Origin: an uncultured Gammaproteobacteria bacterium
GTDB lineage: Bacteria; Patescibacteriota; Microgenomatia; UBA12405; JAHJSD01
Reading direction: 5' to 3'
DNA length: 64,000 nt
Assembly (NCBI GenBank): GCA_964428655.1
Contig: CAYRYE010000001.1
Span: forward strand, 9,328-73,327
Below the pieces are notes generated by a model that made no database searches, was not told where the DNA came from, and was given only the letters and a program-made list of their open reading frames with translations. Shown here piece after piece: positions 21,113-61,084 of this stretch (position 1 is its first letter; every line of letters starts with the position of its first letter). The translations under genes were made by a program, and so were the position numbers.

Positions 21113-22588
<1,476 letters not shown>

Positions 22589-34334: not shown

Positions 34335-34349
34335 TATTGATGACCAAGT

Positions 34350-34571: not shown

Positions 34572-34623
34572 TCCGATTCGGAGGGCTTGCCCGCCAAACC
34601 GGAGGGCGGGCCCTTACAATTTG

Positions 34624-34693: not shown

Positions 34694-34720
34694 GCATGTA
34701 CTGATATTTTATTGTTAAAG

Positions 34721-35086
34721 CTAAAGATTGTCAAATTTAAACTCTGTTCCTATGAATAATTGCCACCATTGTTGCCAGGGAGCGAGAGATTCAAACATTT
34801 GTCCTTTGGATTGGAGTAGAGATAGATTTGGAATTGTAGGTAGAACCAAAATAATTTCATTATCATGAGTCATTCCTAGTTTTTCTCTTGCCTCTCGAAG
34901 AATAAACTCTTCAGTTTGATAGTATTCCTGCTTTTGGGTTAAAAATTGATTTTCTTCTTGAAGTTGATTTAACTCGTTTTGCATTTCCTTGAGCTTTCTC
35001 TTTGCCTTATACCAGGTACGAACCCTTTGGTTTAAACTAATAACCAAACTTAAAAGGATGACTGGTAGAATTAACTTCTTAACCAT
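34721..35086 (-). CDS. ftsB: FtsB/DivIC-like septum-formation initiator (TM + coiled coil)
   Basis: N-terminal TM; heptad-rich LKEMQNELNQLQEENQFLTQKQEYYQTEEFILREAREKLGM is a typical FtsB/DivIC motif. Confidence 0.65.
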   Translation of the reverse strand: MVKKLILPVILLSLVISLNQRVRTWYKAKRKLKEMQNELNQLQEENQFLTQKQEYYQTEEFILREAREKLGMTHDNEIILVLPTIPNLSLLQSKGQMFESLAPWQQWWQLFIGTEFKFDNL

Positions 35087-35132
35087 TTCAATACTTGCAT
35101 GAAGCCCGACCCCATGATATTATAAGCTAATT

Positions 35133-35996
35133 ATGAATTCAGAACTGGCTTTGGAAAATGCAATTGGGAAATTTATTTCTCATTTAGAATCTTTAAAGCG
35201 CTCCAGTAATACGATTGTAGCATATAGGGGCGACTTGAGTCAGCTTGTTGATTTCCTGAAAGGGCAAACAATAGATTTACTAACTCAGGTTGAAACTAGC
35301 CATATTGAAGAGTTTAAAAAGTACTTGACCAAGAAAGGCTATACCCCAAAATCTATCTCCAGGAAGTTAAATTCAGTAAAAAGCCTTTTTAGGTTTTTGG
35401 TTGAGGAGGGAATTCTAGATAGAGATCTTTCCAGAGCAGTTAAACACCCTAAGATCAAAAATGACTTGCCTCGGATACTAAAATCCATAGAGTATCGAGC
35501 CTTACGAGATGTTTGTCGTCATGACAAAAGGACTTTAGCTATTACAGAGCTGATGCTCCAGGTAGGTTTAAGAATTAGCGAGGTGGCCAGTTTACAGTTA
35601 GAAGATGTTGAGGCTGATAACTTGATAATTAGGGCTTATGAAAGCCATTCGCAGAGAAAAGTGCCTTTAAATCGGGCCGTTAAAGAAGCAATAGGAACCT
35701 ACCTAAAAGAACGTTATCAATCAAGATATAAGTTTTTGTTTGTTACTAAAACCGGAAAACAACTCTTGGTAAGAAATATTAGAAGTATTCTTAATCGCTA
35801 TTTTGATAAGGCAGGTCTGCAGGGTGTGAAAGTAAATGATCTTCGCAACACTTTTATTGTTGAACAGTTGTCAGCGGGGGTACCCTTGGACATAATTAGT
35901 AAAATCGTTGGTCACAAAAGGCTTTCCACCACGGAAAGATACTTAAACATGGTTGAAAAGTCAGAAAAAGAAGGAATCAGTCTCAAAGAATTGTAA
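35133..35996 (+). CDS. xerD: Tyrosine site-specific recombinase (XerC/XerD family)
   Basis: Core-binding N-domain; catalytic ...LRISEVASLQLEDV..., HKRLSTTERYLN (the R..H..R..Y tetrad is visible); 287 aa, typical Xer size. Confidence 0.8.
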   Translation: MNSELALENAIGKFISHLESLKRSSNTIVAYRGDLSQLVDFLKGQTIDLLTQVETSHIEEFKKYLTKKGYTPKSISRKLNSVKSLFRFLVEEGILDRDLSRAVKHPKIKNDLPRILKSIEYRALRDVCRHDKRTLAITELMLQVGLRISEVASLQLEDVEADNLIIRAYESHSQRKVPLNRAVKEAIGTYLKERYQSRYKFLFVTKTGKQLLVRNIRSILNRYFDKAGLQGVKVNDLRNTFIVEQLSAGVPLDIISKIVGHKRLSTTERYLNMVEKSEKEGISLKEL

Positions 35997-36011
35997 TAGG
36001 AAGCTTTTTTC

Positions 36012-38354
36012 TCATACTTGGGAACGACGAGTGATTTCTGCCTCTACCACTGAAGCAGGCTGGCCATATTTTAAGACGCTTAATCTTTTAATAGTTTTAG
36101 CCAATTTGGGATTTCTTCTTTTTTTCTCAATTTCTATATCCTTAGTGGTATCCATGGAAAATGGCAGTACGGGCTCGTTATCGATAACTGTTTTTATGTA
36201 AGCATGGAACCGTTCTACGTTAAGAAGATCTTGTTCGCTAAAGACAGGTTGGAATTCACGAGCCAAGTAATTAGCATCAGAAACACCAACCTGAAAAGAC
36301 ACCACTGTTCCCACATTGCCGAAAATGGCATTTTTAACCTCTTCTTCCATTTGGCCAATAAATTGGTTGGCTACGGTAAGATTCAGGCGATACTTTCTGG
36401 CCTCGGAGAGAATTTGGGCAAAATCAGGGGTAGCAAAGTTTTGAAACTCATCAACATAAAGATAGAAATTGCGCCTCTGATCTTCCGGTATATCTTGGCG
36501 GCTCATGGCGGCCATAAGGATTCTGGGAACTAGGATTAGTCCCAAGAAGGAAGAATTTTCTTCGCCGATTTTTCCCTTAGCCAAGTTAATAATTAAAATT
36601 TTGCCCTCGTCCATTACCTTGCGGAAGTCAAAAGCTGATTTTGATTGACCGATGATGTTGCGCATCATTTTGTTAGTTACAAATCGGCCGAATTTGGAAA
36701 CAATGTAATCCAATGTTTCAGATTTGTGAAACTCAGCAGTATGGGCGATTTGTTCGGTCCAGTATTCTCTAACAATAGGGTCTTTTACTTTTGGTAGAAT
36801 TCGTTGTAGATATGGCCCGCCTGGATTTTGAAGAATTTTTACCACTTCCATAAAAGTTGTTCCTGGCACACTCATGGCAGTTAGCATGGCGTTTCTGATC
36901 GCATGTTCAAACCGGGGGCCAACAATACCGGTTTTATACGGATCGTAAAGTTTGTACATCAGATTGATTATTGCGGCAGAGACGAAGTGTTTTTGATCTT
37001 CAGTTTCTACTTCTAAAAGGTTAAGTCCAATTGGTCTTTCTGTTTCTGAAGGATCAAAATAAATTACATCTTCGGCCCTCTCGGGAGGGATGTATTCTAG
37101 AATTTGTTCGGCCAAATCATGGGGGTCGATTAAACAAATCCCTCTACCTGCTTTAATATCCTGGATAAGCATTTCCTTCATTAACTCTGTTTTGCCTGCG
37201 CCTGTTTTGCCGATAATGTAGAAATGTCTCTGCCGATCTTTTTCCTGGATATAGATTGGCTTTTCCACTCCTCGGTAACCGCTTTTACCTAAATACAAAC
37301 CAGATTCGGGAAGATTGGACGGCGGCGGAGCGGGTTTAGCTTTCAGACAGTAAACATTAGGAGTTTCTACTGTTTTATTGGGGAGATGGAAGATTGAAGC
37401 CAGTTCTTCGCTGTTTAAAATGGTTTTTATATTTCGCCAGATAATTGGTTGATAGCGGTAAATAAAGTCAATCATAAAAGAATAACGGAAACGGATTTTC
37501 TTTTCCGAAAAACCATTCCAAGGAGATTCAAATTGAGCAAAACTTGATTTGATGTTGTTGAGCTTGGCTTTAGCAATATCCATTGTTGGAGCGCAAACAA
37601 CAATTCTGATTGAAGTTTCGAATCCTGGTTTACTGCACTTGGACTCGATCGCTTCCAAAGTTCGAGCGTCCACTTTAAAACTGGCTTTTTCTGGGTCAGC
37701 CTCTTGTTTTTTGGTGTCACTGACATATGTTTTGCCTGACTTTTGCCAGTTGATATCAGTTGGGCTTATTAAAATCTGGATGGCCGCTCCCTCGTTTTCT
37801 TCTAATTTAGCCATAGCGGAAGTGATTGCTGAAAGAGGATCAGTGGGAAGATCTTTGTAGGTTTTTAAAGGATAAAAGGATTCTTTTTTAAACTTTAGCC
37901 AGGCGTAGCTAATTTTTCCGCTTTTGGAAAAGATATTATACTCATCGACTTCTTTTATCTCGGCATCAGGGTAGCCGCCATGAATTTGCCGCTCTACTAA
38001 TTCGCGCAGTTTTTGAGAGCAGGAGACAAAGAATTTAATTTCTCCATCAGTACTGACGATCTCAAAAGAAATATGGGGTTGACTTTTAAGGAATTTAAAT
38101 TTACCTCCGGTTTTGATTGAATAGAGAGAGGCCATTATTTGTTCCATGGCATCGATTTTCGTCTCATTGTCTCGGGGAACAGCGATTCTAAACAGGACGG
38201 ACTTTAAAGCCTCTTCTTCTCTTTTACGCCATCGCCACCAAAGAACAAAACTATAAAATAATAATCCAAGACCCAATAGTGTTATAACGGCAATTAAAAA
38301 GAGAACAATATAATAGAATAAGGTACTAGTTAGTTGGTTAACAGTTTGATCCAC
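36012..38354 (-). CDS. virD4: VirD4/TraG/TraD-family type IV coupling protein (FtsK/HerA-superfamily ATPase with N-terminal TM anchor)
   Basis: N-terminal TM helices; Walker A YIIGKTGAGKTELM; Walker B LYVDEFQNFATPDF; long N-terminal periplasmic/cytoplasmic domain as seen in other CPR-type coupling proteins. Confidence 0.8.
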   Translation of the reverse strand: MDQTVNQLTSTLFYYIVLFLIAVITLLGLGLLFYSFVLWWRWRKREEEALKSVLFRIAVPRDNETKIDAMEQIMASLYSIKTGGKFKFLKSQPHISFEIVSTDGEIKFFVSCSQKLRELVERQIHGGYPDAEIKEVDEYNIFSKSGKISYAWLKFKKESFYPLKTYKDLPTDPLSAITSAMAKLEENEGAAIQILISPTDINWQKSGKTYVSDTKKQEADPEKASFKVDARTLEAIESKCSKPGFETSIRIVVCAPTMDIAKAKLNNIKSSFAQFESPWNGFSEKKIRFRYSFMIDFIYRYQPIIWRNIKTILNSEELASIFHLPNKTVETPNVYCLKAKPAPPPSNLPESGLYLGKSGYRGVEKPIYIQEKDRQRHFYIIGKTGAGKTELMKEMLIQDIKAGRGICLIDPHDLAEQILEYIPPERAEDVIYFDPSETERPIGLNLLEVETEDQKHFVSAAIINLMYKLYDPYKTGIVGPRFEHAIRNAMLTAMSVPGTTFMEVVKILQNPGGPYLQRILPKVKDPIVREYWTEQIAHTAEFHKSETLDYIVSKFGRFVTNKMMRNIIGQSKSAFDFRKVMDEGKILIINLAKGKIGEENSSFLGLILVPRILMAAMSRQDIPEDQRRNFYLYVDEFQNFATPDFAQILSEARKYRLNLTVANQFIGQMEEEVKNAIFGNVGTVVSFQVGVSDANYLAREFQPVFSEQDLLNVERFHAYIKTVIDNEPVLPFSMDTTKDIEIEKKRRNPKLAKTIKRLSVLKYGQPASVVEAEITRRSQV

Positions 38355-42523: not shown

Positions 42524-43366
42524 ATGAAAAAAGCAAGTATTGTCTTACTGATTTTAATAACTTGTTTGTTGTTTTTTCAAAGACCGACTCTTGCTGCTGA
42601 CTTAAGTGAGGCAATAGAGTCAAGAGTGTTTTCTGAAACTGAGCCCTTAAGTAAACCAACCAAAGGCAGATTGGAGTTAGCTTTGGAGCGGCAAAATATT
42701 GGTCCGCTTTCACCGCTTAATTTTTTGAAACATGCGATTCGAACCGCGATTAAGCGAGGAGCGCCGACTAACACTATCATTTTAGTTCTTCTTTTGCCTT
42801 TGGTTGGAGTTATTGTTAGCGGGCTTTATTATCTTGTTGGCTTAACCGGTTTTGGTATTTTTATGCCGGCAATGATATCAGTTGCTTTTTTAGCTACTGG
42901 AATAGTTGGCGGTCTAATTCTTTTTGCTATGATTCTGGTTTTGACTTTGGCAACAAGAAGAATTCTTAGGAAAATTAAATTTCATCAGCGATCAAGACGA
43001 GCAATTACTCTTTGGGTGGTTTCTTTGGGCACATTCCTCCTTTTGTTTTTTGCCCCCGCTTTTCATTTGCTTGACTTAACTAGGATTTCCATTTTTCCGA
43101 TTTTATTTATAATTCTCCTTTCTGATGAATTTGTTAGGGTTCGAACCGGGATGAGTCCAAAAAAAGCAATTAATATGATTGGAGGAACACTAGTTATTTC
43201 TATTTTTGGAGCCTTGATAATGGGCTGGGAGTGGTTTCAAGAATTAATTTTACTGAACCCGGAGATTAGTTCTCTTTTAATTCTTCTTGTTAGTTTTTCG
43301 GTTGGCCGCTACACAGGCTTTCGTCTATTGGAATATCGCCGCTTCAAAAGTGTAGTTAGAAAATAA
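42524..43366 (+). CDS. Polytopic membrane protein with signal peptide (probable 7TM partner of the ATP-grasp/retropepsin peptide-modification module)
   Basis: Signal peptide plus about 6-7 TM helices; immediately upstream of, and co-oriented with, the ATP-grasp genes. Confidence 0.5.
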   Translation: MKKASIVLLILITCLLFFQRPTLAADLSEAIESRVFSETEPLSKPTKGRLELALERQNIGPLSPLNFLKHAIRTAIKRGAPTNTIILVLLLPLVGVIVSGLYYLVGLTGFGIFMPAMISVAFLATGIVGGLILFAMILVLTLATRRILRKIKFHQRSRRAITLWVVSLGTFLLLFFAPAFHLLDLTRISIFPILFIILLSDEFVRVRTGMSPKKAINMIGGTLVISIFGALIMGWEWFQELILLNPEISSLLILLVSFSVGRYTGFRLLEYRRFKSVVRK

Positions 43367-43370
43367 TACA

Positions 43371-44681
43371 ATGAAGAATTTTTCATCTGTTTTAAGCAGG
43401 AATTACAGGAATCGGTTTTATTTGACGTATAACCATCCCCGAGGGAAAAAAATAGCCAATTCCAAATTGAGAACCAAAAAGATTTTGAGTAAAAATGAAG
43501 TTGCTATTCCTAAGCTTTTGGCGATTTTGAAAACACAAGCTGATGTGGCTAATTTTCGTTGGGAAGAGCTAGAGGAAAATTTTGCGGTTAAACCAGTTTC
43601 TAGTTCCGGAGGTGAGGGGATTCTTGTAATTCGAAAAAAGGCTAAATGGGCGGGCGAGTGGTTTTTAATGGATGGCAGGAAAATTAACATTTCTGATTTA
43701 AGATTTCATTGTTTTGATATTCTTCAAGGCCATTTTAATATTAGGAGAACACCAGACAAGATTTTTATTGAGGAGCGAGTTAAAATCCATCCTAAATTTT
43801 TGCGCTTTACCAAATTGGGAACTCCGGATATCCGTGTAATTGTTTTTAATCGAGTGCCAATAATGGCAATGTTGAGAATTCCTACTGAGGAGTCCGGAGG
43901 CAAAGCTAATATTACCCATGGAGCTATTGGCCTAGGAGTGGATTTAGCTACAGGAATTACCATTTTTGGAGTTCAAAATGACCATTTAATTACGAAGATT
44001 TATGATAGGCGCCGCAAGAAAAAAATTAAGGTTAATGGAATTAAAGTACCTTTTTGGAACAAAATTCTGAAAACTGCAGTTTTTTGTCAAGAAGTGGTTC
44101 CTGGATTAGGCTATATGGGGGTGGATATTTTTTTAGATAAAGAAAAAGGACCGGTGGTGGTTGAATTGAATGCTCGTCCCGGTCTTGCAATTCAAATTTG
44201 CAATCGGGCCGGTTTAAGACGCCGATTGGAGCGAATAGCAGGTTTAAAAGTGAGAAGCGCGGCTCATGGAATCAGAATCGCTCAATCTCTTTTTGGAGAA
44301 AGTTTTGTTGATCGAGTCAGGTCAAATATTGAAATAGAAGTGCTTTCAATGTTGGAACCGATTAGATTGAAAACTTTTGTTAAAGGAGTTAAAAGGCTGG
44401 ATTTAACTGCTAAGATAGATACTGGGGCTTTTCGCAGTTCGGTAGATGAGGAATTAGCGAAAGAAATAGGTCTTTTGAAGAAAGATAATATTCTTTATTA
44501 TCGCCACTATCGTTCTGCTTTGGGTAGAAAACACCGTCGGCCAGTAGTTGGAGCCACTTTTTGGATTAAAGGCAGAAAAATTATTACTGCTGTTAATGTG
44601 ACTAATAGAGAGAAGTTGAGAACTAAATTTTTGGTTGGCAGAAAAGATTTAAGTGGTTTTATGGTTAAAGTTGGAGAATAA
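43371..44681 (+). CDS. ATP-grasp (alpha-L-glutamate-ligase-like) enzyme fused to a C-terminal retropepsin-like aspartic protease domain
   Basis: ATP-grasp motifs SSGGEGILVI and GYMGVDIFLDKEKGPVVVELNARPGL. C-terminal AKIDTGAFRS (D-T-G-A catalytic signature) as in RimK-associated 'ATP-dependent zinc protease'/retropepsin-like domains. Confidence 0.7.
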   Translation: MKNFSSVLSRNYRNRFYLTYNHPRGKKIANSKLRTKKILSKNEVAIPKLLAILKTQADVANFRWEELEENFAVKPVSSSGGEGILVIRKKAKWAGEWFLMDGRKINISDLRFHCFDILQGHFNIRRTPDKIFIEERVKIHPKFLRFTKLGTPDIRVIVFNRVPIMAMLRIPTEESGGKANITHGAIGLGVDLATGITIFGVQNDHLITKIYDRRRKKKIKVNGIKVPFWNKILKTAVFCQEVVPGLGYMGVDIFLDKEKGPVVVELNARPGLAIQICNRAGLRRRLERIAGLKVRSAAHGIRIAQSLFGESFVDRVRSNIEIEVLSMLEPIRLKTFVKGVKRLDLTAKIDTGAFRSSVDEELAKEIGLLKKDNILYYRHYRSALGRKHRRPVVGATFWIKGRKIITAVNVTNREKLRTKFLVGRKDLSGFMVKVGE

Positions 44682-44683
44682 AT

Positions 44684-45616
44684 ATGAAAAAACAAAAATC
44701 GGAAATTTTAGTTTTGTTCGGGAAAGGGGCCACTCCTCATATTCTTGCTGTTCAAAAAGAGTTAGAACTGCTTGGTGAGCCTGCGACTTTTTCTAATTAT
44801 AAAGATGTAAGATTTCAAGTGGGCGAAGGCGGCAGTGCCAAAATCCTTTTAGGTAAAACGAATTTATCTCAATTTAAGGTAATATTTTTTAGAACAACAG
44901 GTAAGAAATGGGAAGAGGTAAATTTAATACTTTCTTATCTTAAAGAAAGAGTTGAAAAAAAGTTGGTCAGGATTGTTGATCCTGTAATTTTGGGTGGACG
45001 ACCCTACCTTTCAATGAAGGCTCATCAAATGTTTGTTTTTCACCAAGCCGGTTTGCCAGTGCCGAGGACCATTTATGGCAGTTTGAAATTTATTAAAGAG
45101 GAAGTAGGTAGAGTAATTGGTTTTCCGGCAGTAGTAAAGCGAAGTGAAGGAGGTCGGGGCCAAAGAGTGTATTTAGCCAAAGATCAGCCGAGGCTAAATT
45201 ATTTAATCGAAGAACTTAAGTCTCAAGAGAAAGAAGAAGGAAAAAGATTTTTGGTCCAGGAATTTATTGCCAACAAAGGTGATTTGAGAATTTTAGTTTT
45301 GGGCAACCAAATATTGGGAGCAATAAAAAGAGTCAGAGCCAAAAAAGGCGAGTTCCGCAATAATGTTTCTCTGGGGGGCAAAGTCTATCCCTCTAAATTA
45401 GACAAAAAAATAAAACAGATAGCCTTGAGAGCGGCAAAAATTGCTCAACTTTCAGTGGCGGGAGTGGACATTGTTTTAAGGGATCCGGACCAAAAACCGT
45501 TTATTTTCGAGGTCAATCGTGCGCCTCAATTTAAAGGGTTTATGAGAGCCACTGGAATTAATGTGCCTTTAAAGCTGGCTGAGTATTTAATTTCATTAAA
45601 AGAACAAACAAGGTGA
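44684..45616 (+). CDS. rimK: RimK-family ATP-grasp ligase (paralog 1)
   Basis: VVKRSEGGRGQRVYLAKD, FLVQEFIANKGDLRILVLGNQILGAIKR, VAGVDIVL...FEVNRAPQFKGF match RimK-type alpha-L-glutamate ligase. Confidence 0.8.
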   Translation: MKKQKSEILVLFGKGATPHILAVQKELELLGEPATFSNYKDVRFQVGEGGSAKILLGKTNLSQFKVIFFRTTGKKWEEVNLILSYLKERVEKKLVRIVDPVILGGRPYLSMKAHQMFVFHQAGLPVPRTIYGSLKFIKEEVGRVIGFPAVVKRSEGGRGQRVYLAKDQPRLNYLIEELKSQEKEEGKRFLVQEFIANKGDLRILVLGNQILGAIKRVRAKKGEFRNNVSLGGKVYPSKLDKKIKQIALRAAKIAQLSVAGVDIVLRDPDQKPFIFEVNRAPQFKGFMRATGINVPLKLAEYLISLKEQTR

Positions 45617-46536
45617 AACTATTACTTTTAAGAATCAATAAAGAAAAATATGTACCGGAAAGAATTAAAGAAGAAGCGAAAAAATTAGGACATCAAGTGA
45701 ATGTTTGTCAATATCAAAATTTAGCTTTTAAATTCGACCCACTGTTTCAGGCAGGAATTTTAGATAAAAAAAACATTGCTGATTATGATGGACTTATTTT
45801 CCGAGTTGCCGGAACCACAAGTGGCAGTTATGTTGCCTTTCGGGATATTTTAATTGCTCAATTTTTAAAATCAGGAAAATTCTGTCTTAATGGCCGCAGT
45901 TATTTGAAATTTTCCCGTTTGGATAAGTTAATTCAACACTTTTATCTTTCCTGGGCTGGATTACCAGTGGTGAGAACTTTTTGTTTTGGCAAAGGTGCTT
46001 CCGTTGATTATGCTGAAGCTCAATTGGGAAAAAGACTTGGTTTTCCGATTATTGCCAAACCGCGCTTTGGTGCCCAGGGTAGAGAAATTTTCTTGTTGAA
46101 AAATGAAAGCGAAATTAAGAAGTTTTACCAAAAAACAAGAAAAAAAGAGGATATTAGTTTGTGGTTGTTCCAAGAGTTTTTATCCACAGGTTGTGATTAC
46201 AGAATTGTTGTTTTGGGTGGTAAAGTTTTGGGAGCAATGAAAAGAGTGGCAGTCAAAGGAATGATTGTGACTAATTTTTCTCAAGGTGGGTCTGTTTATT
46301 CTTTTGAACCAACAAAAAAGCAAATGCAATTGGCTCTAAAAGTAGCCAAACTATTTAATCTGGACTATGCTGGAGTCGATATTATGGAAGATAAGCAAGG
46401 TAATAGTTATGTTTTGGAAGTCAACCGCGCCTGCCAATTTAAAGGTTTTGAAAAAGCCACTGGCATTAACGTCGCCGCTAAAATTGTGGAATTACTTTTG
46501 ACACCTGGGGCAGAAAAAGGTGCCGCGGCCGCCTAA
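45613..46536 (+). CDS. rimK: RimK-family ATP-grasp ligase (paralog 2)
   Basis: IAKPRFGAQGREIFL, WLFQEFLSTGCDYRIVVLGGKVLGAMKR, YAGVDIMEDKQGNSYVLEVNRACQFKGF; 4-nt overlap with paralog 1. Confidence 0.8.
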   Translation: MKLLLLRINKEKYVPERIKEEAKKLGHQVNVCQYQNLAFKFDPLFQAGILDKKNIADYDGLIFRVAGTTSGSYVAFRDILIAQFLKSGKFCLNGRSYLKFSRLDKLIQHFYLSWAGLPVVRTFCFGKGASVDYAEAQLGKRLGFPIIAKPRFGAQGREIFLLKNESEIKKFYQKTRKKEDISLWLFQEFLSTGCDYRIVVLGGKVLGAMKRVAVKGMIVTNFSQGGSVYSFEPTKKQMQLALKVAKLFNLDYAGVDIMEDKQGNSYVLEVNRACQFKGFEKATGINVAAKIVELLLTPGAEKGAAAA

Positions 46537-52647: not shown

Positions 52648-54552
52648 ATGGGGGAACGAGATGAAATGCACATGATGGAAGAGGCCTCACGTCTTGGAGA
52701 ACAGTATAGGGAAATTGCATATGAGGGAATAATCTACGAAGAGAGAATTTTAGAGGCTTTAAAGTGGAAAACTGCAGAACAAGTTAATCTTGGGTGGTTG
52801 GAGGAAGTTATAGACGAGGGTCTTGCCTATCAAATGGGCAGATTGACAGAGAGATATGGCTACACTCTAAGTTCCGATGGTCCAGCCGCTTGGGAGTTAA
52901 CGAGACTGACAAGATTATTTTGTACTGTCGAGGAAGCCAGAGACAGGCCGATTACCAAAATTGCTGCGGCGGTAACAAGGGCGACTTTAGAAAATCTTGA
53001 CCGCCTAGGAAGAGACGAAATTGCGGGTTTCGATGGTGATGAAGCCGGGGAGGAAGACGGAGAAAAGTCAGGGCTTCAGTGGTATGATGTTTTGGCAGTT
53101 TCAGAAGCGGAAAGGGATAATCCCAAGTATGATGGCTGGCGAAGTCTGACAGCCAAAGAAGCTTTTAGGTTTAAATTATATGAGCTTCATGCTCGAGCAA
53201 CAGCAATTTTAAACATTACTACGGTTGACCAACAAGTTATGTTAGCTGCTGATGATGCTCAGGCTATGGTTGATTTGGTTTTAAGACAAAAGGATCTTCA
53301 TTTTCTAGACACTATTACTCCTGATTCCATGGTTTGGAAAGCTGCTTTTTCTGGTGAGTGGGGAGAGAAAGTTGATAGGGCTTTGTGGTTGATTGATGTG
53401 GTAGGAAGAGAAGGTTTTAGGTATGTTGATGAAAATAAAGAGAGTCGACATCTCAAAAAACCTTTTGCCGACAGTAAGGAATTTTCTGACGAAAGGGTCT
53501 TTGCCAATTTCATGAAAAGACTATATAAAGCTGCCGGTCGGGATATGAGTGCTGCTTTGTTTGCTTGGCAATTAGCTCGTGGTGTTTGGGGCATAATTGG
53601 CGAGTACGGATATACTGTAAAGGAGGAAGAAAAAAATGTTTGGAATCATAAGGGTGAACATTTAGGGAAGAAGAAAGTTAAAGTTCATAAAATTGGCGAT
53701 TCTCCATTTGTAACTAATCACCAAACTTGGACAATGCATACAGGCGCAAAAAGAGCGGCTGAATGGGGAATAACATGTTATGACCAAGTTGCTCATCCCC
53801 GAGGTGAGGAATTTCCTTTTCTTACTACCTATAGATTTGCTTTAGGTGGTTCTTTTGTTTCTCATGCGGGTTTGCCTTATTCTTTAGGTATTACAAAAGA
53901 TAAGGAATTGCTACAATTGCTACCCTCTTATTTAAAATCGGCAAAAATTGATTATGAAGGAAAGAAAGTTAGTCTTTACGATCTTTGGTCCGGGGAAATT
54001 ACAGGCAAAAGGATTCCTTTAGGTAAGTTGCCCTGGGGTGAAACACAAAGGGTTGAAACTGGTACTGATGAATCACTGCCTCTTGCCTCATTTGGCTTAT
54101 GGAGGTCTCTTCACTCGCGCGCTTTAGCAGTGGTTACCAAGCTGTTAAGAGGAAATCCACCGCTAAGAGATCTTACTTCAGAAGAATTTTGGCAAGGTTC
54201 AGTTTTTAGGCATCTTGCAAAAGTAACTCCAATTAATAATATTCCTGGCGACAGTGAGTATACCAAGCCTTCTGAGAGCTTTAGAACCAGACTGGTGTTA
54301 AGCTGGATATTAGCGAGAAGACCGTCCCTTTCCACAGACAAGGGATTGCTTGTTTTTCACTATGTTCACCCAGATGAACAATGGAAGGGCGTAAATGCTG
54401 ATGATTCGCCAGTCTCAGTAGCTAGAATACTCTGGCACGCGGTAAACACAAGCTTTCTTCGAGATAAAGACTTTGATTGGATAATGGAACAAGTGAAGGA
54501 GGTAGTTACTCTCACCCACGGAGAAAAGGCAGCCTTCTACAAAAAATCTTGA
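52648..54552 (+). CDS. Hypothetical cytoplasmic protein (634 aa), compositionally atypical (GC-richer, Glu/Trp/Arg-rich)
   Basis: Long uninterrupted ORF; no TM or signal peptide; no recognised motifs. Its codon usage visibly differs from neighbours, with many G/C-ending codons. Confidence 0.5.
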   Translation: MGERDEMHMMEEASRLGEQYREIAYEGIIYEERILEALKWKTAEQVNLGWLEEVIDEGLAYQMGRLTERYGYTLSSDGPAAWELTRLTRLFCTVEEARDRPITKIAAAVTRATLENLDRLGRDEIAGFDGDEAGEEDGEKSGLQWYDVLAVSEAERDNPKYDGWRSLTAKEAFRFKLYELHARATAILNITTVDQQVMLAADDAQAMVDLVLRQKDLHFLDTITPDSMVWKAAFSGEWGEKVDRALWLIDVVGREGFRYVDENKESRHLKKPFADSKEFSDERVFANFMKRLYKAAGRDMSAALFAWQLARGVWGIIGEYGYTVKEEEKNVWNHKGEHLGKKKVKVHKIGDSPFVTNHQTWTMHTGAKRAAEWGITCYDQVAHPRGEEFPFLTTYRFALGGSFVSHAGLPYSLGITKDKELLQLLPSYLKSAKIDYEGKKVSLYDLWSGEITGKRIPLGKLPWGETQRVETGTDESLPLASFGLWRSLHSRALAVVTKLLRGNPPLRDLTSEEFWQGSVFRHLAKVTPINNIPGDSEYTKPSESFRTRLVLSWILARRPSLSTDKGLLVFHYVHPDEQWKGVNADDSPVSVARILWHAVNTSFLRDKDFDWIMEQVKEVVTLTHGEKAAFYKKS

Positions 54553-54588: not shown

Positions 54589-56112
54589 TTATCTACCTTG
54601 TAGTTTCCTTAGGAGTGCTTCGTATAAGACATCTATGCCTTTCGCTGGCCCTCCTTTAGTCACAACTTCGCTACCACTACCTTTCTTTTCATATCCCAAT
54701 CGTTGTCCGTATTTACCTCTTGCTATAGCTGACCTTACTGATGGAGCGGCACCCATGAGTCCGTATTTAGCACCTGTTTTAACTGGCCCGAATGCCTCGC
54801 CGATGGCGGTGCCAAATCCTGGATCTTTTATTCCCATGGCGTTTCTTATTATATCAGGAATTTGGGCTAAAATTAACAAAAATCCCATGCCGATGATGGT
54901 TTTGATGAAAAACGCAGATCTGGAACCGGTTACGTCTAACAGGGGAGCGGCCCACATTGATTCTAAATTAGCTGATTGAAGAATAAAGACACCAATCATA
55001 GACACAACGACTACTGCCGGAAAAATTAGAATTTCAGCAAAGATTCCCTTTATCCAAGTGCCGAACCCACCGGCTTGGAAACCAGGGATGGCCCCCATCA
55101 TTATCTGGAGCGGTCCTATGATAACAGCAAAAATAATTTTTATATATGCTTTAGTTAGTCCAAATAATAATTTAAAAAGCAAAAACAAAGCGATAACTGT
55201 CCAAATTAACATTATCAAGGCTGGTCCAGCAAGTAAGCCGATAGCAGCTCCAATCAAAAATTGTCCTCCTATGAGGGTACCGATGACAGTGCCAACAACG
55301 CCGCCAAGAGCTGTTGCAAGTACGAATATACCATTTCCTGCATTAGTAACGGAAAAAAACATTGGCAAAAGAGCGAAAAAGCCGCTATTAATGACTCTGG
55401 TAGGCGTGACCTCGCCTAGTTTCACCGGGCCCAATTGAAACAGTACTGGTTCAATGCCGCCTGTTTTTAAAACTGTAATCCCAAGGGCTATTAAGACATA
55501 CATTAGATCAATCAAAAATCCGGCGATGGCGTAGGAGAAGGTGACTAAAATCAAGGCGCCGATGATTTTGGGCAAAGCGTTTTCAATGGTGATGACAGCT
55601 TGGGGCGATATTTTTACCCGGAACATAATCGCTAGACCGATGCCAACAAAGATAAGAGTAAAAAGAACATAAGTAACATTTCTAAAAGCTTTCCAAATAG
55701 GCAGGATTGGCTGTAAACCGGTGAAACCAACTCCTTGAGCGTAGGCTGGCGCCGCTCCCAAACGATGTAAAACATCATAGGCATAGTAAACTCCTGAAGC
55801 CGGTGGATTAGCGTAAACAGCGCCAATTAAATTAGTGGTGAATTGAAGAGCGCCTATTTCCTGTTTTATTTTTCCTGATTGGGTTCCTTCAGGTGAACCT
55901 TCTCCAGTTCCAGCCATGTTTTTCAAAAAGCCAAAAACAGTATCACTTAAAGTATGTTCATGAAGTCCTTCAGCCGTTAATTTATCTTTATTATTTAAAT
56001 AGTCTTCGTAGCTTGAAGCAGCAAAGGTGAGTTTGAGAGAACCAGCAATAAGAACGCTGAAACAAAAAAATAAGAAGCTTAAACTGATGATTTTCTTTGC
56101 TTTTCTATTCAT
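54589..56112 (-). CDS. VirB6/TrbL-like polytopic membrane protein (putative T4SS channel component)
   Basis: Signal peptide, about 100-aa periplasmic region, then 7-9 Gly/Ala-rich TM helices and a short cytoplasmic tail; genomic context next to the pilin array and virB-like genes. Confidence 0.45.
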   Translation of the reverse strand: MNRKAKKIISLSFLFFCFSVLIAGSLKLTFAASSYEDYLNNKDKLTAEGLHEHTLSDTVFGFLKNMAGTGEGSPEGTQSGKIKQEIGALQFTTNLIGAVYANPPASGVYYAYDVLHRLGAAPAYAQGVGFTGLQPILPIWKAFRNVTYVLFTLIFVGIGLAIMFRVKISPQAVITIENALPKIIGALILVTFSYAIAGFLIDLMYVLIALGITVLKTGGIEPVLFQLGPVKLGEVTPTRVINSGFFALLPMFFSVTNAGNGIFVLATALGGVVGTVIGTLIGGQFLIGAAIGLLAGPALIMLIWTVIALFLLFKLLFGLTKAYIKIIFAVIIGPLQIMMGAIPGFQAGGFGTWIKGIFAEILIFPAVVVVSMIGVFILQSANLESMWAAPLLDVTGSRSAFFIKTIIGMGFLLILAQIPDIIRNAMGIKDPGFGTAIGEAFGPVKTGAKYGLMGAAPSVRSAIARGKYGQRLGYEKKGSGSEVVTKGGPAKGIDVLYEALLRKLQGR

Positions 56113-56154
56113 CTATCTCTGTTGATTATAATTTTCTATTTTCTTCCGGTCAAG

Positions 56155-58932
56155 TTATAAAGGCGACCCCTGCCATTCGGCAGGAGTATTGTATAAACTC
56201 CATAATTTTTTAGTTAATTCCAGACTGCCTCCCGGAGCATAAAGTTTTCTCCCTTCATCTCTTTGTATATCTGTATGGCCGCTAATAGCGTCTGGTTTTT
56301 CAAGCCAATGTTTCTCCTCATCTATGGACTCCAGTGAGGAACCCCCGCCGGTTCCGTTAAATTTAGCTTCTATCGGCAAATTTTTGGCGTTGACTTTTTT
56401 ACCGTTAGCCTCTTCAATTTCATATACAAGTTGGTCTGCAATCTCTCCAATTTGGAGTCCGAAAAGATAATTTGTACATTGAAGGACTTTATTATAATTA
56501 GTGACATAAAGAGTATCTCGGGAGGTGACTCTTGCTTCTGCAGTACAACGATTAGGAACATCTTCGTCATTGTAATTAACAGAACAATTGTCCACTTTGA
56601 ATGAATCAGGGAATAGTAGATTTCTTGCTTCCCTAGCCAAACCAGTTGGATTGTCGTAATCTTCATTGGCTTTATTGGTAGTCGGTCCGTTGGCTTTTAC
56701 TCCTTTACCGAGATCGCAGGGGAAATAGAAACGGCTTCTATCTGTTTCTGAAAGACTGGTGTGCAGCTCGGCTGGCAAGCTCATACCTGCCATTCTCGAA
56801 CAGGCTTCGACAGCGCCAAGAGCGTTGGGGATAAAAAGTTTTGCTACCTGGCAAATCTGGCATTGATCATCAACGTCGGTTATAAAGCTGTTTCTTATTG
56901 GTTCGTCGTTGACTTTGACAGGCAATACCCGGTACCTTTGTTGTGGACTTAACTGACCAAAATAACTGCTAAAAACCTCATTGCCTTCTTCTCTTTTACA
57001 TTTACTTTCTTTTGTAGGGTAGCAGGATTCAAGGTAAACCGGCAGATCAGAGTGGCTAATTCCTCCATCTATAGTCATCTGAGCCCAAGTATAAAAGCCA
57101 TAAAGAGCCGCATCCATAGTTTTCGGTATCAAACAAGCCCACTGAGGTGTGTGGGCACACATTGCTTCATAATTTAAATCATTTTCTATAAAATGTTGTT
57201 CATTACAACAATACAGAAGACTTGGTCTAACGGGAATAGGATTGGATGTACACCCGTCAACATTGACTCTGTCAATTCTTCCATCGTCCATTTTTTCAGT
57301 AAAGTCTTTTTCCAACAACATTCCTTTTCCTTCGCAGATCCAAAACAACGGTCGGTCAAAAAGAGCTGTTTCATTCCTTTGTTGAGGAGATCTTGGATCG
57401 TCTGATACTGCCGCCCAAAGTAAGTCATTAGTGATCCAATCAGTGCCTAACTCTCTATATTTCGGCCCAGAAATATATTTACTGGCAAATCCGGTTAAAC
57501 GTTGACTTCTTCTTTTAGCTAGTTCTTCCCAACCGCCTTCTTTGAAAACATCAACGTAGGGCATGTTTCCTCCATAAGCAGAACCAGTATACCAATCAAT
57601 TATTTCTTGAAAGACTTTTAAACCGGCAAAAACATGATGATGGATGGAGAGTTGGTTTATTAGTTCAATAGAGAGTTCAGAGGAATGATGGGTGGGGAAA
57701 AATTTGAACTGGTGGGTAATTATGTTTGATGAGGGGACACAGAATTCAGCCATTCCGTTGTTGAATTCTATAGCCCTTTTATATAATGCGTAATTAATAT
57801 TTGGATCTTCTCCCGGATAGGTATTGTCTTTATCGGAAGGTACCCAATCCAGGCTCCAGGGAAGACGAAACAGATTTCCTAGCCCAGGAATAAAGCTGAA
57901 GAGTCTTTGGAGCAAAGAAGGCTCGTTATTCGGAGTTGAATTACCAGGAAACCAGTTGCGGTTTACTTTAGCCTCGTCCCAGGAAGCTTCTCTGGTTGAG
58001 CGGTTGAGAGCGCCTTCAACCAGACTGCGAAGGGACGGTTTACCTCCGCTTTTGCAGGTGTCGCAGTGGCAATCTCCTTTCAAGGCGTCAATGACACAGT
58101 CAGCATCCCAAAGATTCCATGATCCGCTGTAATCACCAGGAGCAAAAGAAAAAATTGCCCAGCCAATGATATTCTGAGATTGCCAGAAATCAACTACTGT
58201 TTGGCCGTCGGCGCCGGCGCAATACATATTACAGAGGTCATTTTCTTGATAGGTTGGCGGACCGCTTTCACCATTTTCCAAGGCGCCGGTTTCGGTTAGA
58301 ACTACTGGCAGAGAGCCAGCTCCCCTAACTCCCAGTTCACCTAGCTTATTCCGGTAATTTCTAGCCATGCCCGGAGAATAAATATGCATGGAAATAACAG
58401 AGTAGGGGATATTTTCTAACAAGCCAACCATCGTTGGAGTATTTGGATGGTATGGATCCCAAGCCGGTGAGGTTAAAATGGCATTGGAAGGCAAAACACT
58501 AGCCAAAGTATTAATATATTTTTTTACTCTACTACCACATTCTTGTAAAGATAAATTGCCGCATTCAGTGTCCAATCGGGCTGGTTCGTTCCAGGGTTCA
58601 AAATAGACTGTTTTATTAATTTTCTTTAAAAAATTAGCCCAGATATTGGCTGCCTCTTGAGGATTATTAAGCATTTTATCGCCTATTGGCAGCCAGTGGC
58701 TGTGGCCGCGGATAACCCAATTAAAGGAGGAAGAGTTGATTACATTAACCAACGCATCGCTTTTAGGATCGGCGGCAACGACTACCAAGGCTCCGTCGCC
58801 AAAATGCTCTTGGATTTTATTAATAGTATTTCCACTCCAATCATTAATAATATTGACATAGGCAAAAGTTTTAACAACAGATAACAGGTAACAGGTGGTA
58901 ATGGAAAGTAGGAAGATTGAAAACTTTTTCAT
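56155..58932 (-). CDS. Secreted 925-aa Cys-rich protein with N-terminal glycoside-hydrolase-family-5-like TIM-barrel domain
   Basis: Signal peptide MKKFSIFLLSITTCYLLSVVKTFA. GH5 acid/base signature VYFEPWNEP and nucleophile LPVVLTETG. The C-terminal ~600 aa has more than 30 Cys. Confidence 0.55.
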   Translation of the reverse strand: MKKFSIFLLSITTCYLLSVVKTFAYVNIINDWSGNTINKIQEHFGDGALVVVAADPKSDALVNVINSSSFNWVIRGHSHWLPIGDKMLNNPQEAANIWANFLKKINKTVYFEPWNEPARLDTECGNLSLQECGSRVKKYINTLASVLPSNAILTSPAWDPYHPNTPTMVGLLENIPYSVISMHIYSPGMARNYRNKLGELGVRGAGSLPVVLTETGALENGESGPPTYQENDLCNMYCAGADGQTVVDFWQSQNIIGWAIFSFAPGDYSGSWNLWDADCVIDALKGDCHCDTCKSGGKPSLRSLVEGALNRSTREASWDEAKVNRNWFPGNSTPNNEPSLLQRLFSFIPGLGNLFRLPWSLDWVPSDKDNTYPGEDPNINYALYKRAIEFNNGMAEFCVPSSNIITHQFKFFPTHHSSELSIELINQLSIHHHVFAGLKVFQEIIDWYTGSAYGGNMPYVDVFKEGGWEELAKRRSQRLTGFASKYISGPKYRELGTDWITNDLLWAAVSDDPRSPQQRNETALFDRPLFWICEGKGMLLEKDFTEKMDDGRIDRVNVDGCTSNPIPVRPSLLYCCNEQHFIENDLNYEAMCAHTPQWACLIPKTMDAALYGFYTWAQMTIDGGISHSDLPVYLESCYPTKESKCKREEGNEVFSSYFGQLSPQQRYRVLPVKVNDEPIRNSFITDVDDQCQICQVAKLFIPNALGAVEACSRMAGMSLPAELHTSLSETDRSRFYFPCDLGKGVKANGPTTNKANEDYDNPTGLAREARNLLFPDSFKVDNCSVNYNDEDVPNRCTAEARVTSRDTLYVTNYNKVLQCTNYLFGLQIGEIADQLVYEIEEANGKKVNAKNLPIEAKFNGTGGGSSLESIDEEKHWLEKPDAISGHTDIQRDEGRKLYAPGGSLELTKKLWSLYNTPAEWQGSPL

Positions 58933-59300
58933 GGTCCTGGGATTTTAAACTCAGTGACATTTGCTCCGGTGAACTCTTTAATCAAAATCAAGATAAACCA
59001 GCCAGCAATAGTTAAAACTAAACCGATTATGGCAGTGGTAAGAGTGTTTTTAGCTGACTGTAATCCCTTTTGTTCACCACCAGCAAAGATTAATTTAAAA
59101 CCACCAACAATCAGCATTGCTCCAAAAGCCAAGCCGGCGATGGTAGTGGCTATTCTCAAAATGTTGATAAATAGACACTGAAAACCTTGAAGGGTGGCAA
59201 CAGTGGGGTCGGTAGCACTAACACAGTCTCCACTCCAAAATACGGGATCAGCTGCAAAAACTGGTCCCCAAAAGACAATTCTTTTCTTGAGATAATTCAC
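58929..59300 (-). CDS. VirB2/TrbC-like pilin-type protein (paralog 3 of 8)
   Basis: ...MLIVGGFKLIFAGGEQKGLQSAKNTLTTAIIGLVLTIAGWF...FKIPGP. Confidence 0.5.
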   Translation of the reverse strand: MNYLKKRIVFWGPVFAADPVFWSGDCVSATDPTVATLQGFQCLFINILRIATTIAGLAFGAMLIVGGFKLIFAGGEQKGLQSAKNTLTTAIIGLVLTIAGWFILILIKEFTGANVTEFKIPGP

Positions 59301-59303
59301 TGT

Positions 59304-59669
59304 TTATCCTTGCAGACTGGGAATTTCTAGTTGCAGAATATTGATTCCAAACAGAGCTTCAATCAATTTTATAATTGCCCAGGCAACGAAAATAATGGCC
59401 AAACCAATCAAAGCATGAGTGATTTGGTTTCGGGCATTTTCGACCTCTGTCTTATCACCTTTAGACGTGATCCATCGAACTCCGCCCCAGATCAAAATGG
59501 CAAAAAATACCAAGGCGACAATAACCAAGACCAATCGGATCAATCCAGAAACAACACTGGCAATTGTTAAACCGCCAAGAGCACTAAATTGTCCTCCAGG
59601 AGAAATATCAATTGGTTCTTGGGCCCAAGCGGGTTTTGCTATTAGAGCCATTAGTTTTTCCATGTTCAC
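59304..59669 (-). CDS. VirB2/TrbC-like pilin-type protein (paralog 4 of 8)
   Basis: ...FAILIWGGVRWITSKGDKTEVENARNQITHALIGLAIIF...INILQLEIPSLQG. Confidence 0.5.
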   Translation of the reverse strand: MNMEKLMALIAKPAWAQEPIDISPGGQFSALGGLTIASVVSGLIRLVLVIVALVFFAILIWGGVRWITSKGDKTEVENARNQITHALIGLAIIFVAWAIIKLIEALFGINILQLEIPSLQG

Positions 59670-59706
59670 CTCCTTTCAAGAATGCGACATACAACAATTT
59701 TATAAA

Positions 59707-60045
59707 TTATAATTGTGGTAGAGTAATTTGCAGGTTCTCAAATCCACTTAAACCGAAAACAAATCCAATTATTCTAATAATAGCAAAGATGGAAAAAACA
59801 ACCAAGAGGCCAACAAGAGCAAAAGTTAGCTGTTTTTGGGCTTCTTCAATTTTGTTTTTCTCTCCCTGACTATTGATCCACTTAAGTCCTCCCAGTAAAA
59901 AGTGAACTAGGAAGAAAAAGAAGCCGACGATAATTAACCAATGAATAAGAAACGGCAGAGCGCGATTGAAAAAATCAACACCTTCTAAATTTTTTACTGA
60001 GTCTTTTAAAACCGGATTTTCTAACCCTTGGGCAAAGATTTTCAT
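59707..60045 (-). CDS. VirB2/TrbC-like pilin-type protein (paralog 5 of 8)
   Basis: MKIFAQ... HFLLGGLKWINSQGEKNKIEEAQKQLTFALVGLLVVF...LQITLPQL. Confidence 0.5.
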   Translation of the reverse strand: MKIFAQGLENPVLKDSVKNLEGVDFFNRALPFLIHWLIIVGFFFFLVHFLLGGLKWINSQGEKNKIEEAQKQLTFALVGLLVVFSIFAIIRIIGFVFGLSGFENLQITLPQL

Positions 60046-60047
60046 CT

Positions 60048-60470
60048 CTATGGCGTTAACCTATTAATTGCTCCTGGAATATCCAGGAAATCAACATGCA
60101 GTAAATGGCCAACTAAAGATAGTAAGAAAATAGCGGCAATAACGACGGCAAGACCGATTAGTGAATTGGTAATTTTCTTTTGAGCGTCTTGAATTTTCTG
60201 AGCTTCGCCGCCGGCGGAAACCAAGTTGTAGCCAGCGATAATGATTTGAACAATGAACCAAATCCCGGCAACAGTAGTCATCAAACCAATGACAATGGAG
60301 ACAGCTCTGCTGAACATTTTTCCTCCCTCGCCAGCCCCTTCTCCTTCAAGTCCGAGAGGTCCAATTCCTCTTAACGGTGGTAAGTCCTTAGGAACTTGGG
60401 CTAAAACTGATTTGGTAATTTTACTGAGGTCCATAGATTTTTGGTAACAAAATTGCGTCCCAATTCCCAA
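60048..60470 (-). CDS. VirB2/TrbC-like pilin-type protein (paralog 6 of 8; start may be internal)
   Basis: ...IIIAGYNLVSAGGEAQKIQDAQKKITNSLIGLAVVIAAIF...FLDIPGAINRLTP. Confidence 0.5.
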   Translation of the reverse strand: MGIGTQFCYQKSMDLSKITKSVLAQVPKDLPPLRGIGPLGLEGEGAGEGGKMFSRAVSIVIGLMTTVAGIWFIVQIIIAGYNLVSAGGEAQKIQDAQKKITNSLIGLAVVIAAIFLLSLVGHLLHVDFLDIPGAINRLTP

Positions 60471-60801
60471 AAATTAAACGTCCGAAAATTGCTGCTAGAG
60501 TAAACGATCCGGCTGCCACCAGCAATCCAAGTGAGCTTAACCAAATTTTAGCCCAAGCGTTGGTGATTTTCTGAGCATCACCGTTGGCGCTCATGAAGCC
60601 ATAACCGGCAATAATAAAATTAAGAAGAGCAAAAATGCCGGCCCCAACAACTAAAAGTTTAAGGATATTATTAAGAAATGTAATCAGACCCTCACCTCCC
60701 GTTCCGGAGTACTTATCTACCCCGGGAGGGGGTTTAATCTGGCCAAAAAAGTTGGCGGCTAGAGCCGGTTGGTTAAAAAGGCGCTTCAAGGATATTGACA
60801 C
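60421..60801 (-). CDS. VirB2/TrbC-like pilin-type protein (paralog 7 of 8)
   Basis: ...FIIAGYGFMSANGDAQKITNAWAKIWLSSLGLLVAAGSF... Confidence 0.5.
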   Translation of the reverse strand: MSISLKRLFNQPALAANFFGQIKPPPGVDKYSGTGGEGLITFLNNILKLLVVGAGIFALLNFIIAGYGFMSANGDAQKITNAWAKIWLSSLGLLVAAGSFTLAAIFGRLIFGNWDAILLPKIYGPQ

Positions 60802-61084
60802 CAGTGATTACTTGAATTAATTGAATAACAAAATAACTGACAAAAATAACAACAAATCCGGCAACAGCAGATGTAACAGCCTTTTGTCCTTTTTGTACTT
60901 TACTGCTGTCTTGGTTTCCTGCTCCGATGATAATGCTAATGCCGCCAAAAATCAAGAGAAAAAGAAAAATTATGCCCGCCAGTCCGTAAATATTAAAAAG
61001 AATGGTTGAAAAAAATTCACCCAGGGTGCCAAATTTATCAGCAACTCCGTATTCTTTACCAATATCAACGGCAAAAACTTGCAT
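60773..61084 (-). CDS. VirB2/TrbC-like pilin-type protein (paralog 8 of 8; trimmed to internal Met MQVFAVD..)
   Basis: ...LIFGGISIIIGAGNQDSSKVQKGQKAVTSAVAGFVVIFVSYF...NILEAPF. The 200-aa form in the track would overlap the SBP gene on the other strand. Confidence 0.5.
   Translation of the reverse strand: MQVFAVDIGKEYGVADKFGTLGEFFSTILFNIYGLAGIIFLFLLIFGGISIIIGAGNQDSSKVQKGQKAVTSAVAGFVVIFVSYFVIQLIQVITGVNILEAPF

Follow-up and report, generated by a model that had tools for sequence, protein, structure and literature searches.

What would a bacterium do with six diverged genes for small pilin-like proteins, lying head to tail and partly overlapping one another? The question is raised by positions 58929-61084 of the stretch of DNA analysed here, a 64-kb piece (the window, to which all coordinates refer) of contig CAYRYE010000001.1, from a genome that GTDB assigns to the Microgenomatia within the Patescibacteriota. 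On balance we favour the view that this array encodes a fixed, non-redundant set of subunits of the T4SS-pilin family belonging to a chromosomal, monoderm-type type IV secretion system (T4SS), with one gene, G2, supplying the bulk component and the others supplying low-copy ones. Genetic linkage connects the set to VirB6-like, VirB3 and VirB4 genes, and selection maintains each of its genes individually.

The array consists of six open reading frames (ORFs) in tandem, all on the minus strand, in the ORF listing of 57.5-64 kb (frames up to 61375). An earlier reading of the bare sequence, hereafter the original prediction, had already taken them for pilin-like genes, and the ORF listing, matches to the Pfam family PF18895 (T4SS_pilin) and their recurrence in 79 related loci bear this out. 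They are, from the first gene of the array (lengths in amino acids, aa; E-values for PF18895):

60773-61084, minus strand: G6, first gene of the array, 103 aa (ORF-track form to 61375); E 3.2e-5
60421-60801, minus strand: G5, 126 aa, GTG start; E 6.8e-4; positional orthologs in 60+ loci
60048-60434, minus strand: G4, 128 aa from ATG 60434 (longer form to 60470); E 2.4e-5
59707-60045, minus strand: G3, 112 aa, ATG 60045; E 5.1e-4
59304-59663, minus strand: G2, 119 aa (longer form to 59669); E 1.8e-10, 41.1 bits
58929-59300, minus strand: G1, 123 aa, GTG start; E 1.6e-6, 28.5 bits

Starts were chosen by reading the sequence and by aligning the stop-to-stop frames of positional orthologs. For G6 the internal methionine at 61084, which the original prediction had preferred, is the start: the frames of its orthologs begin only a little upstream of the Met that aligns with it, the 97 codons upstream of ATG 61084 show no conservation in the ortholog alignment, and the gene call in the Joint Genome Institute (JGI) record is 103 aa. 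The 200-aa form of G6 is an artefact of the ORF track, ruled out by the same alignment. At the G5 start, GTG 60801, Val/GTG is kept in at least seven relatives, and the Met of G4 at ATG 60434 aligns with the Mets of its orthologs and agrees with a JGI call of 128 aa, the TTG start at 60470 being ruled out by ortholog alignment. One of the two overlaps proposed originally, that of G6 and G5 (60773-60801, 29 nt), therefore stands as described, whereas the 50-nt overlap of G5 and G4 (60421-60470) needs the unsupported TTG and is in reality 14 nt from ATG 60434. Elsewhere the spacing is as tight, with 2 nt between G4 and G3, 3 nt between G2 and G1, and a 4-nt overlap (ATGA) between G1 and the 925-aa ORF downstream; the 43 nt between G3 and G2 are the sole real intergenic gap of the array. 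As to the promoters and ribosome-binding sites, whose analysis was suggested at the outset, G2 has the only strong Shine-Dalgarno (SD) sequence of the array, GGAGG at 59673-59669, 5 nt before its ATG at 59663, and a scan with promoter and terminator consensus sequences revealed no convincing promoter upstream of G6. The 16S rRNA of the genome ends in the canonical ...GGATCACCTCCTTTCT.

All six products match PF18895, G1 and G2 above its gathering threshold of 26.6 bits and G3-G6 below it (20.1-24.7 bits, E 2e-5 to 7e-4); mutual alignment and a hidden Markov model (HMM) of the six (E 1e-32 to 1e-45) place G3-G6 in the same family as G1 and G2. Run against the whole window, this HMM finds those six genes, two further ones at 23478-23780 and 23777-24088, and no others, so hydrophobic ORFs have not clustered here by chance. 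The identity of G2-G6 to G1 is 17-28%, and all six share a common plan, namely a short leader, a variable segment, a first helix with a GG motif, a polar turn (G-[GD]-E/D-x-K...A-Q/R), a second helix and a short tail. Hydropathy gives two hydrophobic spans in each protein, an AlphaFold2 model of G2 built with 16 orthologs (predicted local distance difference test score, pLDDT, 74) predicts a hairpin with helices at 30-62 and 67-101, and an invariant proline stands 1-9 residues from the C-terminus in every product. The leaders end in a hydrophobic-x-Ala↓Gln/Ala motif (the arrow marks the leader end) and are, up to that point, 11-16 aa long in four of the products and 5-6 aa long in G3 and G6, which is short for Sec signal peptides; the leader of G6 reads MQVFA↓VDIG, and the 5-aa leader of G3, MKIFA↓QGLENPVL, is kept in G3 orthologs. 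At the leader cleavage site of eight bona fide VirB2/TrbC proteins the sequence P-A-x-A-Q never varies, and together with the Ala↓Gln/Ala motif of the array pilins it may point to a shared maturation chemistry.

Whether these proteins deserve the epithet VirB2-like, which the original prediction gave them, depends on what is meant by it. They possess the architecture of VirB2/TrbC, i.e. a leader site of the Ala-x-Ala↓Gln type, two hydrophobic helices and a short loop, and they also have the context, with a VirB6-like gene adjacent and VirB3 and VirB4 genes in the same window. Direct homology to VirB2/TrbC did not emerge (hhalign probability below 1%), and the canonical family PF04956 (VirB2/TrbC) gives an E-value of 0.89 for G4 alone and no match for the other five. 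The name thus holds as a statement about architecture and genomic context, not as demonstrated family membership. The top NCBIfam match of all six, and the sole one of four, is the Mbov_0395 family pilin-like conjugal transfer protein (NF045849), with sub-threshold scores (E 9e-7 to 0.03; 14-28 bits against a cut-off of 40); because these matches consistently point to a family of Mycoplasma integrative and conjugative elements (ICEs), there is a hint that the pilin family may descend from the two-transmembrane (two-TM) proteins of monoderm systems of mating-pair formation type FATA (MPF-FATA) rather than from diderm VirB2.

Further evidence for a fixed set comes from relatives. GTDB species representatives were scanned with a G2-ortholog profile, which gave 79 loci from Woesebacteria, Shapirobacteria and Microgenomates, and arrays were then called with the HMM of the six paralogs. 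A protein identical to G2 is encoded on a 428-kb JGI metagenome contig and on an NCBI contig of about 548 kb. Close homologs of G2 are 52-83% identical and carry Patescibacteria, Microgenomates, Woesebacteria and Shapirobacteria names only, and almost every locus with enough flank holds a same-strand tandem array. The comparison of array size that had been proposed shows six genes to be commonest (34 of the 63 arrays uncut by contig ends) and eight to come next (17/63), followed by seven (six arrays), five (three) and ten (one), with solitary extra copies in two; several of the seven- and five-gene counts are undercounts caused by the overlap filter. In locus L078 (CAYTOP010000011.1, 3001-9903, ten genes) and locus L057 (6026-8803, seven genes) the array has undergone lineage-specific expansion, the added copies being solely of the G2 type.

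When each ORF is assigned to its best-matching window gene, the exact order G6-G5-G4-G3-G2-G1 is found in 37 loci, and the best match is the gene at the same position, typically with two to three times the score of the next paralog. The ortholog alignment further reveals a distinct conserved motif in the exposed N-terminal segment of each positional group: a Cys pair in the mature N-terminal segment of G1 (SGDCV...QGFECLF), IDISPGGQF..LGNLT in G2, LENPVL in G3, RGIGPLGLE in G4, FGQIKPPPGVDKYS in G5 and VNIGxEY in G6. The divergence of the N-termini stressed by the original prediction is therefore real between paralogs, but the segment from leader to helix 1 is well conserved within each positional ortholog group. 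Measured against six close relatives, the proportion of nonsynonymous differences (pN) is 0.12-0.36 and that of synonymous differences (pS) 0.59-0.89 for every array gene, and the ratio of nonsynonymous to synonymous substitution rates (dN/dS) is 0.04-0.29 wherever dS is unsaturated; these sequence comparisons indicate that all six genes are under purifying selection. No frame is broken, either in the window or in the 44 complete arrays from other species, across which mean identity is 57% for G2 and 32-44% for the other five. As to DNA repeats within the array, the longest are 75-93% identical over 14-20 nt, and the flanks hold no inverted repeats.

The tie of the array to a secretion system rests on its neighbours and on a second group of genes closer to the start of the window, which are as follows:

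56155-58932, minus strand: 925-aa secreted protein, translationally coupled to G1 (ATGA)
56125-56153, minus strand: promoter-like site TTGACC-17-TATAAT (11/12), from the consensus scan
54589-56112, minus strand: VirB6-like polytopic membrane protein, 507 aa, the next gene after the 925-aa ORF
52648-54552, plus strand: 634-aa cytoplasmic protein, its gene in convergent orientation to the VirB6-like one; neither a hydrophobic segment nor a Pfam match
23777-24088, minus strand: pilX2, 103 aa, PF18895 above gathering (31.1 bits)
23478-23780, minus strand: pilX1, 100 aa, PF18895 above gathering (28.5 bits), overlapping pilX2 by 4 nt
19189-20037, minus strand: PrgI/VirB3-like protein with a CarboxypepD_reg domain (Pfam PrgI 5.1e-7)
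18397-19182, minus strand: 261-aa ORF (p261)
16587-18467, minus strand: VirB4-like ATPase (TraG P-loop 1.1e-33, CagE_TrbE_VirB 3.4e-4)
13946-16579, minus strand: 877-aa protein with a weak CHAP match
13529-13936, minus strand: 135-aa ORF, the end of the T4SS core nearest dnaN

The 507-aa protein has an N-terminal TM segment, about 110 aa and then at least six hydrophobic segments, which corresponds to the layout of VirB6/TrbL (at least five TM helices and an extracytoplasmic N-terminal region, in a T4SS locus). Homologs occur in 63 loci, and nearly all related loci have one downstream of the array. No Pfam family matches the protein itself, and one of 28 orthologs matches TrbL/VirB6 (PF04610, E 8.6e-4); with its AlphaFold2 model (pLDDT 76.5) the top four Foldseek matches in the PDB are TrwI/VirB6 chains of the R388 T4SS stalk (E 0.013-0.1, probability 0.92-1.00, more than 300 columns, TM-score 0.20-0.43), DotA being fifth. 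Sequence profile searches have been reported to find few VirB6 homologues in Microgenomatia, which has been taken as a sign of extreme sequence divergence (PMC12102498), and the model makes the 507-aa protein a good candidate for the missing Microgenomatia VirB6. The promoter-like site lies in the 42-nt gap before this gene and is the only strong match of the scan, overall counts being near the expectation from shuffled sequence. Between the VirB6-like gene and PrgI/VirB3, related loci hold an opposite-strand gene of 600-875 aa, the counterpart of the 634-aa gene; a large cytoplasmic protein is encoded there, on the opposite strand after the VirB6-like gene, in every locus inspected, and the opposite-strand gene is detectably similar in close relatives only.

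Relatives with eight-gene arrays link the array to the core. Their order is pilX2 - pilX1 - G6 - G5 - G4 - G3 (or a G2-like gene) - G2 - G1, followed by the large secreted protein, the VirB6-like gene, the large opposite-strand gene, PrgI/VirB3 and p261, the PrgI and p261 homologs being on the same strand as the pilin/VirB6 block; these loci end at or within p261, and a VirB4 gene is placed downstream only from the PrgI-p261-VirB4 order of the window. The genes pilX1 and pilX2 are orthologous to the two extra upstream genes of the eight-gene arrays, and pilX2 has, in the window as in the eight-gene loci, the same divergent upstream neighbours, a SpoIID-domain gene and a 618-aa one. Because of this orthology and of the shared upstream flank, we conclude that the present genome holds an ancestral eight-member pilin set, split 6 + 2, and that the block from G6 to the VirB6-like gene, together with the opposite-strand gene, has moved by about 35 kb from its place between pilX1 and PrgI. 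The T4SS core (13529-20037) for its part directly abuts an origin-type region from 8476 on, with yidC, rnpA, dnaA (9849-11186) and dnaN (12390-13520).

A large secreted ORF of 430-1200 aa stands after G1 in every locus inspected. The 925-aa protein of the window has a signal-type N-terminus as the sole hydrophobic segment found and no Pfam match; similarity to it is detectable in close relatives only, mostly over the N-terminal 300 aa or so, and the remainder diverges fast. This N-terminal domain is conserved in 15 loci, and an alignment of 16 orthologs has invariant R75, N115-E116, Y185 and E214 (TE.G), with H77 and W272 at least 90% conserved. Compared with the PDB, its profile has top matches mostly in the glycoside hydrolase (GH) clan GH-A, all of them weak (E 0.011-1.6), among them GH128 6ub7 (E 0.011), GH5 3ayr, 8ghx, 4w85 and 1bqc, and GH2; the NE and TE motifs are aligned in the one alignment displayed, that with 6ub7. 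We therefore regard the domain as a putative clan GH-A-like glycosidase domain, an assignment that is probable but unproven. Sequence and profile searches of the PDB returned nothing meaningful for the pilin profile, for the 925-aa protein or for the 507-aa protein.

How might such a set of proteins work? In the model for Gram-negative systems derived from the R388 structure, VirB6 is where VirB2 protomers leave the membrane, and they polymerise under a VirB5 tip. By comparison, the array subunits would insert in the membrane, would be extracted or assembled by the VirB4 ATPase at the platform that the VirB6-like protein provides, and could form one heteromeric filament or conduit, either envelope-spanning or extracellular. 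G2 would be the bulk (major) subunit, since it is the most conserved, is duplicated in some lineages and has a strong SD in the present genome; the other paralogs may be low-copy initiator or priming, adaptor or tip subunits, by analogy with the minor pilins of type IV pili and type II secretion systems (T2SSs), and the variable secreted protein with its glycosidase-like domain might act at the distal, host-facing end. Operons for type IV pili and T2SSs encode related, non-redundant small subunits, one of which is abundant and several of which are low-copy ones that prime or cap the fibre. The analogy is functional only: type IV pilus and T2SS pilins have no homology to the array and are unrelated to it in fold, with one N-terminal helix, and in machinery, which comprises a prepilin peptidase and a PilB/GspE ATPase. 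A set of major and minor subunits, one of the two arrangements that the original prediction had entertained, is plausible and is the reading that the evidence favours, with G2 probably as the major subunit.

Several observations weigh against this proposal. The filament is a prediction from the genes, and monoderm MPF-FATA T4SSs are not known to make pili (PMC12102498). Comparing the array family with eight bona fide, plasmid-borne VirB2/TrbC sequences by hhalign yields a probability of 0.4-0.5% and an E-value of 0.12-0.14, and a Foldseek search with the hairpin model of G2 gave nothing informative. The assignment of the 507-aa protein to VirB6 is made on modest scores (Foldseek E about 0.01, low TM-score), and in the present genome 35-40 kb separate the array from VirB3/VirB4. 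Lastly, a strong SD is rare at every array position among relatives, being present in about 16-18% of G2 orthologs; since it does not generalise, the assignment of G2 as major subunit rests mainly on conservation.

The proposal can be sharpened, at the price of being considerably more tentative: six to eight ancient paralogs, in fixed stoichiometry or order, may build one heteromeric filament or stalk, which would be nucleated by a highly divergent VirB6 and would bear as its cap a fast-evolving secreted protein whose glycosidase domain opens the cell wall of the host. To our knowledge, no characterised T4SS has such a heteromeric-pilin architecture, the known conjugative and T-pili being homopolymers of one VirB2-type pilin plus lipid. 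If a heteromeric filament were indeed formed, the epibiont would gain a conduit to its host, and the short leaders, ending as they do in a conserved Ala↓Gln site, would imply that maturation follows an unusual route.

Among competing explanations, the one that best withstands the evidence dispenses with the filament altogether: the hairpins would stay in the cytoplasmic membrane, where they would help to form the channel, or the base of the stalk, that surrounds the VirB6-like protein in a monoderm translocon. We judge this unlikely, yet it deserves to be taken seriously, for it agrees with the MPF-FATA type of the system and the lack of known pili in that type (PMC12102498), with the Mycoplasma ICE two-TM conjugal transfer family being the best NCBIfam match of all six, with a homology to canonical VirB2 that is undetectable by hhalign and with leaders as short as the 5-6 aa of G3 and G6; fixed positional orthology would suit a stoichiometric complex equally well. 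It is harder to reconcile with the conserved Cys pair and the conserved motifs, specific to each paralog, of the mature N-terminal segments, features that are typical of exposed regions, or with the coupling of the array to a large, secreted and fast-evolving protein, and a pilus-like structure is also what the field's review favours, without data (PMC12857230).

A repertoire of alternative pilins, each building its own homopolymer for different hosts or for antigenic versatility, is the interpretation suggested for such arrays in PMC12102498, and here it appears improbable. The low identity among paralogs (17-28%) and the location of the variable part in the exposed N-terminal segment would be expected from it, amplification of VirB2 paralogs has precedents, cited in PMC12102498, in the Trw system of Bartonella and in Anaplasma, and lineage-specific additional copies of G2 do occur occasionally. 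Against this, one-to-one positional orthologs persist over species- to order-level divergence, the window holds no recent duplicates, purifying selection acts on all six genes, the array has no recombination substrates or invertible elements, its overlapping or tightly coupled genes imply co-expression, and the pilin series is essential in Southlakia epibionticum on a single host (PMC10633639). Positional orthology, selection and the lack of DNA repeats (none exceeding 20 nt, and no inverted ones) likewise speak strongly against a cassette operating by recombination or inversion; all six genes are full-length, each with a start codon of its own, and the phase- or antigenic-variation cassette that the original prediction had offered as its other option is not upheld. 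The notion of one functional pilin gene accompanied by decaying duplicates, in favour of which nothing but the sub-threshold Pfam scores of G3-G6 was found, can be dismissed as pseudogene remnants are excluded by the same evidence: the frames are intact here and in the 44 complete arrays, where the disabled paralogs that would betray such remnants were not seen, dN/dS is low where dS is unsaturated, and group-specific motifs are conserved.

The fixed subunit set that we favour has to be viewed against what is already known. Patescibacterial "VirB2 arrays" have been published (Quinonero-Coronel et al., Microb Genom 2025; PMC12102498), as have an essential pilin series of the T4SS of S. epibionticum ML1 (Wang et al., Cell 2023; PMC10633639) and, in a 2025 review, six sequence-divergent VirB2-like pilins together with speculation on a pilus-like conduit (PMC12857230); that patescibacterial T4SS core genes lie next to dnaA/dnaN has been published too. 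The published arrays have 2-11 tandem genes of about 25% mean identity, are especially abundant in Microgenomatia, and are defined as at least two pilin-HMM-positive genes in tandem or one gene apart in a Patescibacteria genome with VirB4 (PMC12102498); the present locus, with its six tandem genes, its VirB4-like ATPase at 16587-18467 and its patescibacterial relatives, is of that kind. It shares with them PF18895, the phylum and a chromosomal monoderm-type T4SS near dnaA, and differs in that its array stands away from VirB3/VirB4 and is divided 6 + 2, the locus itself being undescribed. Hence the array is a known type of locus and in itself no discovery; strict positional orthology over about 60 species and the VirB6-like gene adjoining the array are the modest additions of the present census. 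Where the authors of PMC12102498 lean to versatility or antigenic variation, our data do not favour that reading.

Like the VirB2/TrbC T-pilin of Gram-negative MPF-T systems, the array products are small, have an Ala-x-Ala↓Gln leader end, a short exposed segment and two helices, and are encoded with VirB3, VirB4 and VirB6 genes; unlike VirB2/TrbC, they have leaders of 5-16 aa instead of about 40-50 aa, comprise 6-8 distinct paralogs instead of one gene, belong to a monoderm bacterium and lack significant profile similarity. In Bartonella Trw (with its trwL copies) and in Anaplasma phagocytophilum (virB2), both host-dependent bacteria, a single T4SS locus likewise contains several VirB2-type genes in tandem (PMC12102498), yet those copies are regarded as lineage-specific amplifications for surface variation, whereas the array paralogs are ancient, fixed in order, conserved one by one and under purifying selection. 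The Mbov_0395 family of Mycoplasma ICEs (NF045849) resembles the array in being a small two-TM protein of a monoderm MPF-FATA-type conjugation system; it is single-copy in ICEs, unlike the six-gene array.

The interest of such loci lies in their lifestyle context: the T4SS is essential to the epibiotic life of the sole genetically tractable Patescibacterium, with a function described as completely unknown (PMC11665869), and its pilin series distinguishes this T4SS from all other monoderm ones (PMC10633639, PMC12857230). The individually conserved and order-fixed paralogs of Microgenomates, in the company of a VirB6-like protein and of a variable secreted one with a glycosidase-like domain, narrow the hypotheses to a heteromeric machine over a variation repertoire, and the array results supply concrete targets for expression, structural and genetic tests.

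Beyond the array and the core, one more gene of the window may belong to the secretion system:

36012-38354, minus strand: VirD4/TraG-like coupling-protein candidate, 780 aa (TrwB_AAD_bind 7e-7, TraG-D_C 2.2e-6, T4SS-DNA_transf 5.7e-4)

Beside it, in the region 34348-38354, are a tyrosine recombinase of the XerC/D type (35133-35996, plus strand) and three tRNA genes (Met, Ala, Met). The rRNA genes of the window are unlinked, 23S at 215-3024 on the minus strand and 16S at 21109-22588 on the plus strand, about 18 kb apart; between the pilX pair and PrgI/VirB4 the window has the 16S gene, in the place that the six-gene array block occupies in relatives. Finally, the interval 42524-46536 on the plus strand encodes a 7TM_transglut membrane protein followed by three consecutive ATP-grasp (RimK/sugar-transfer-associated) genes.

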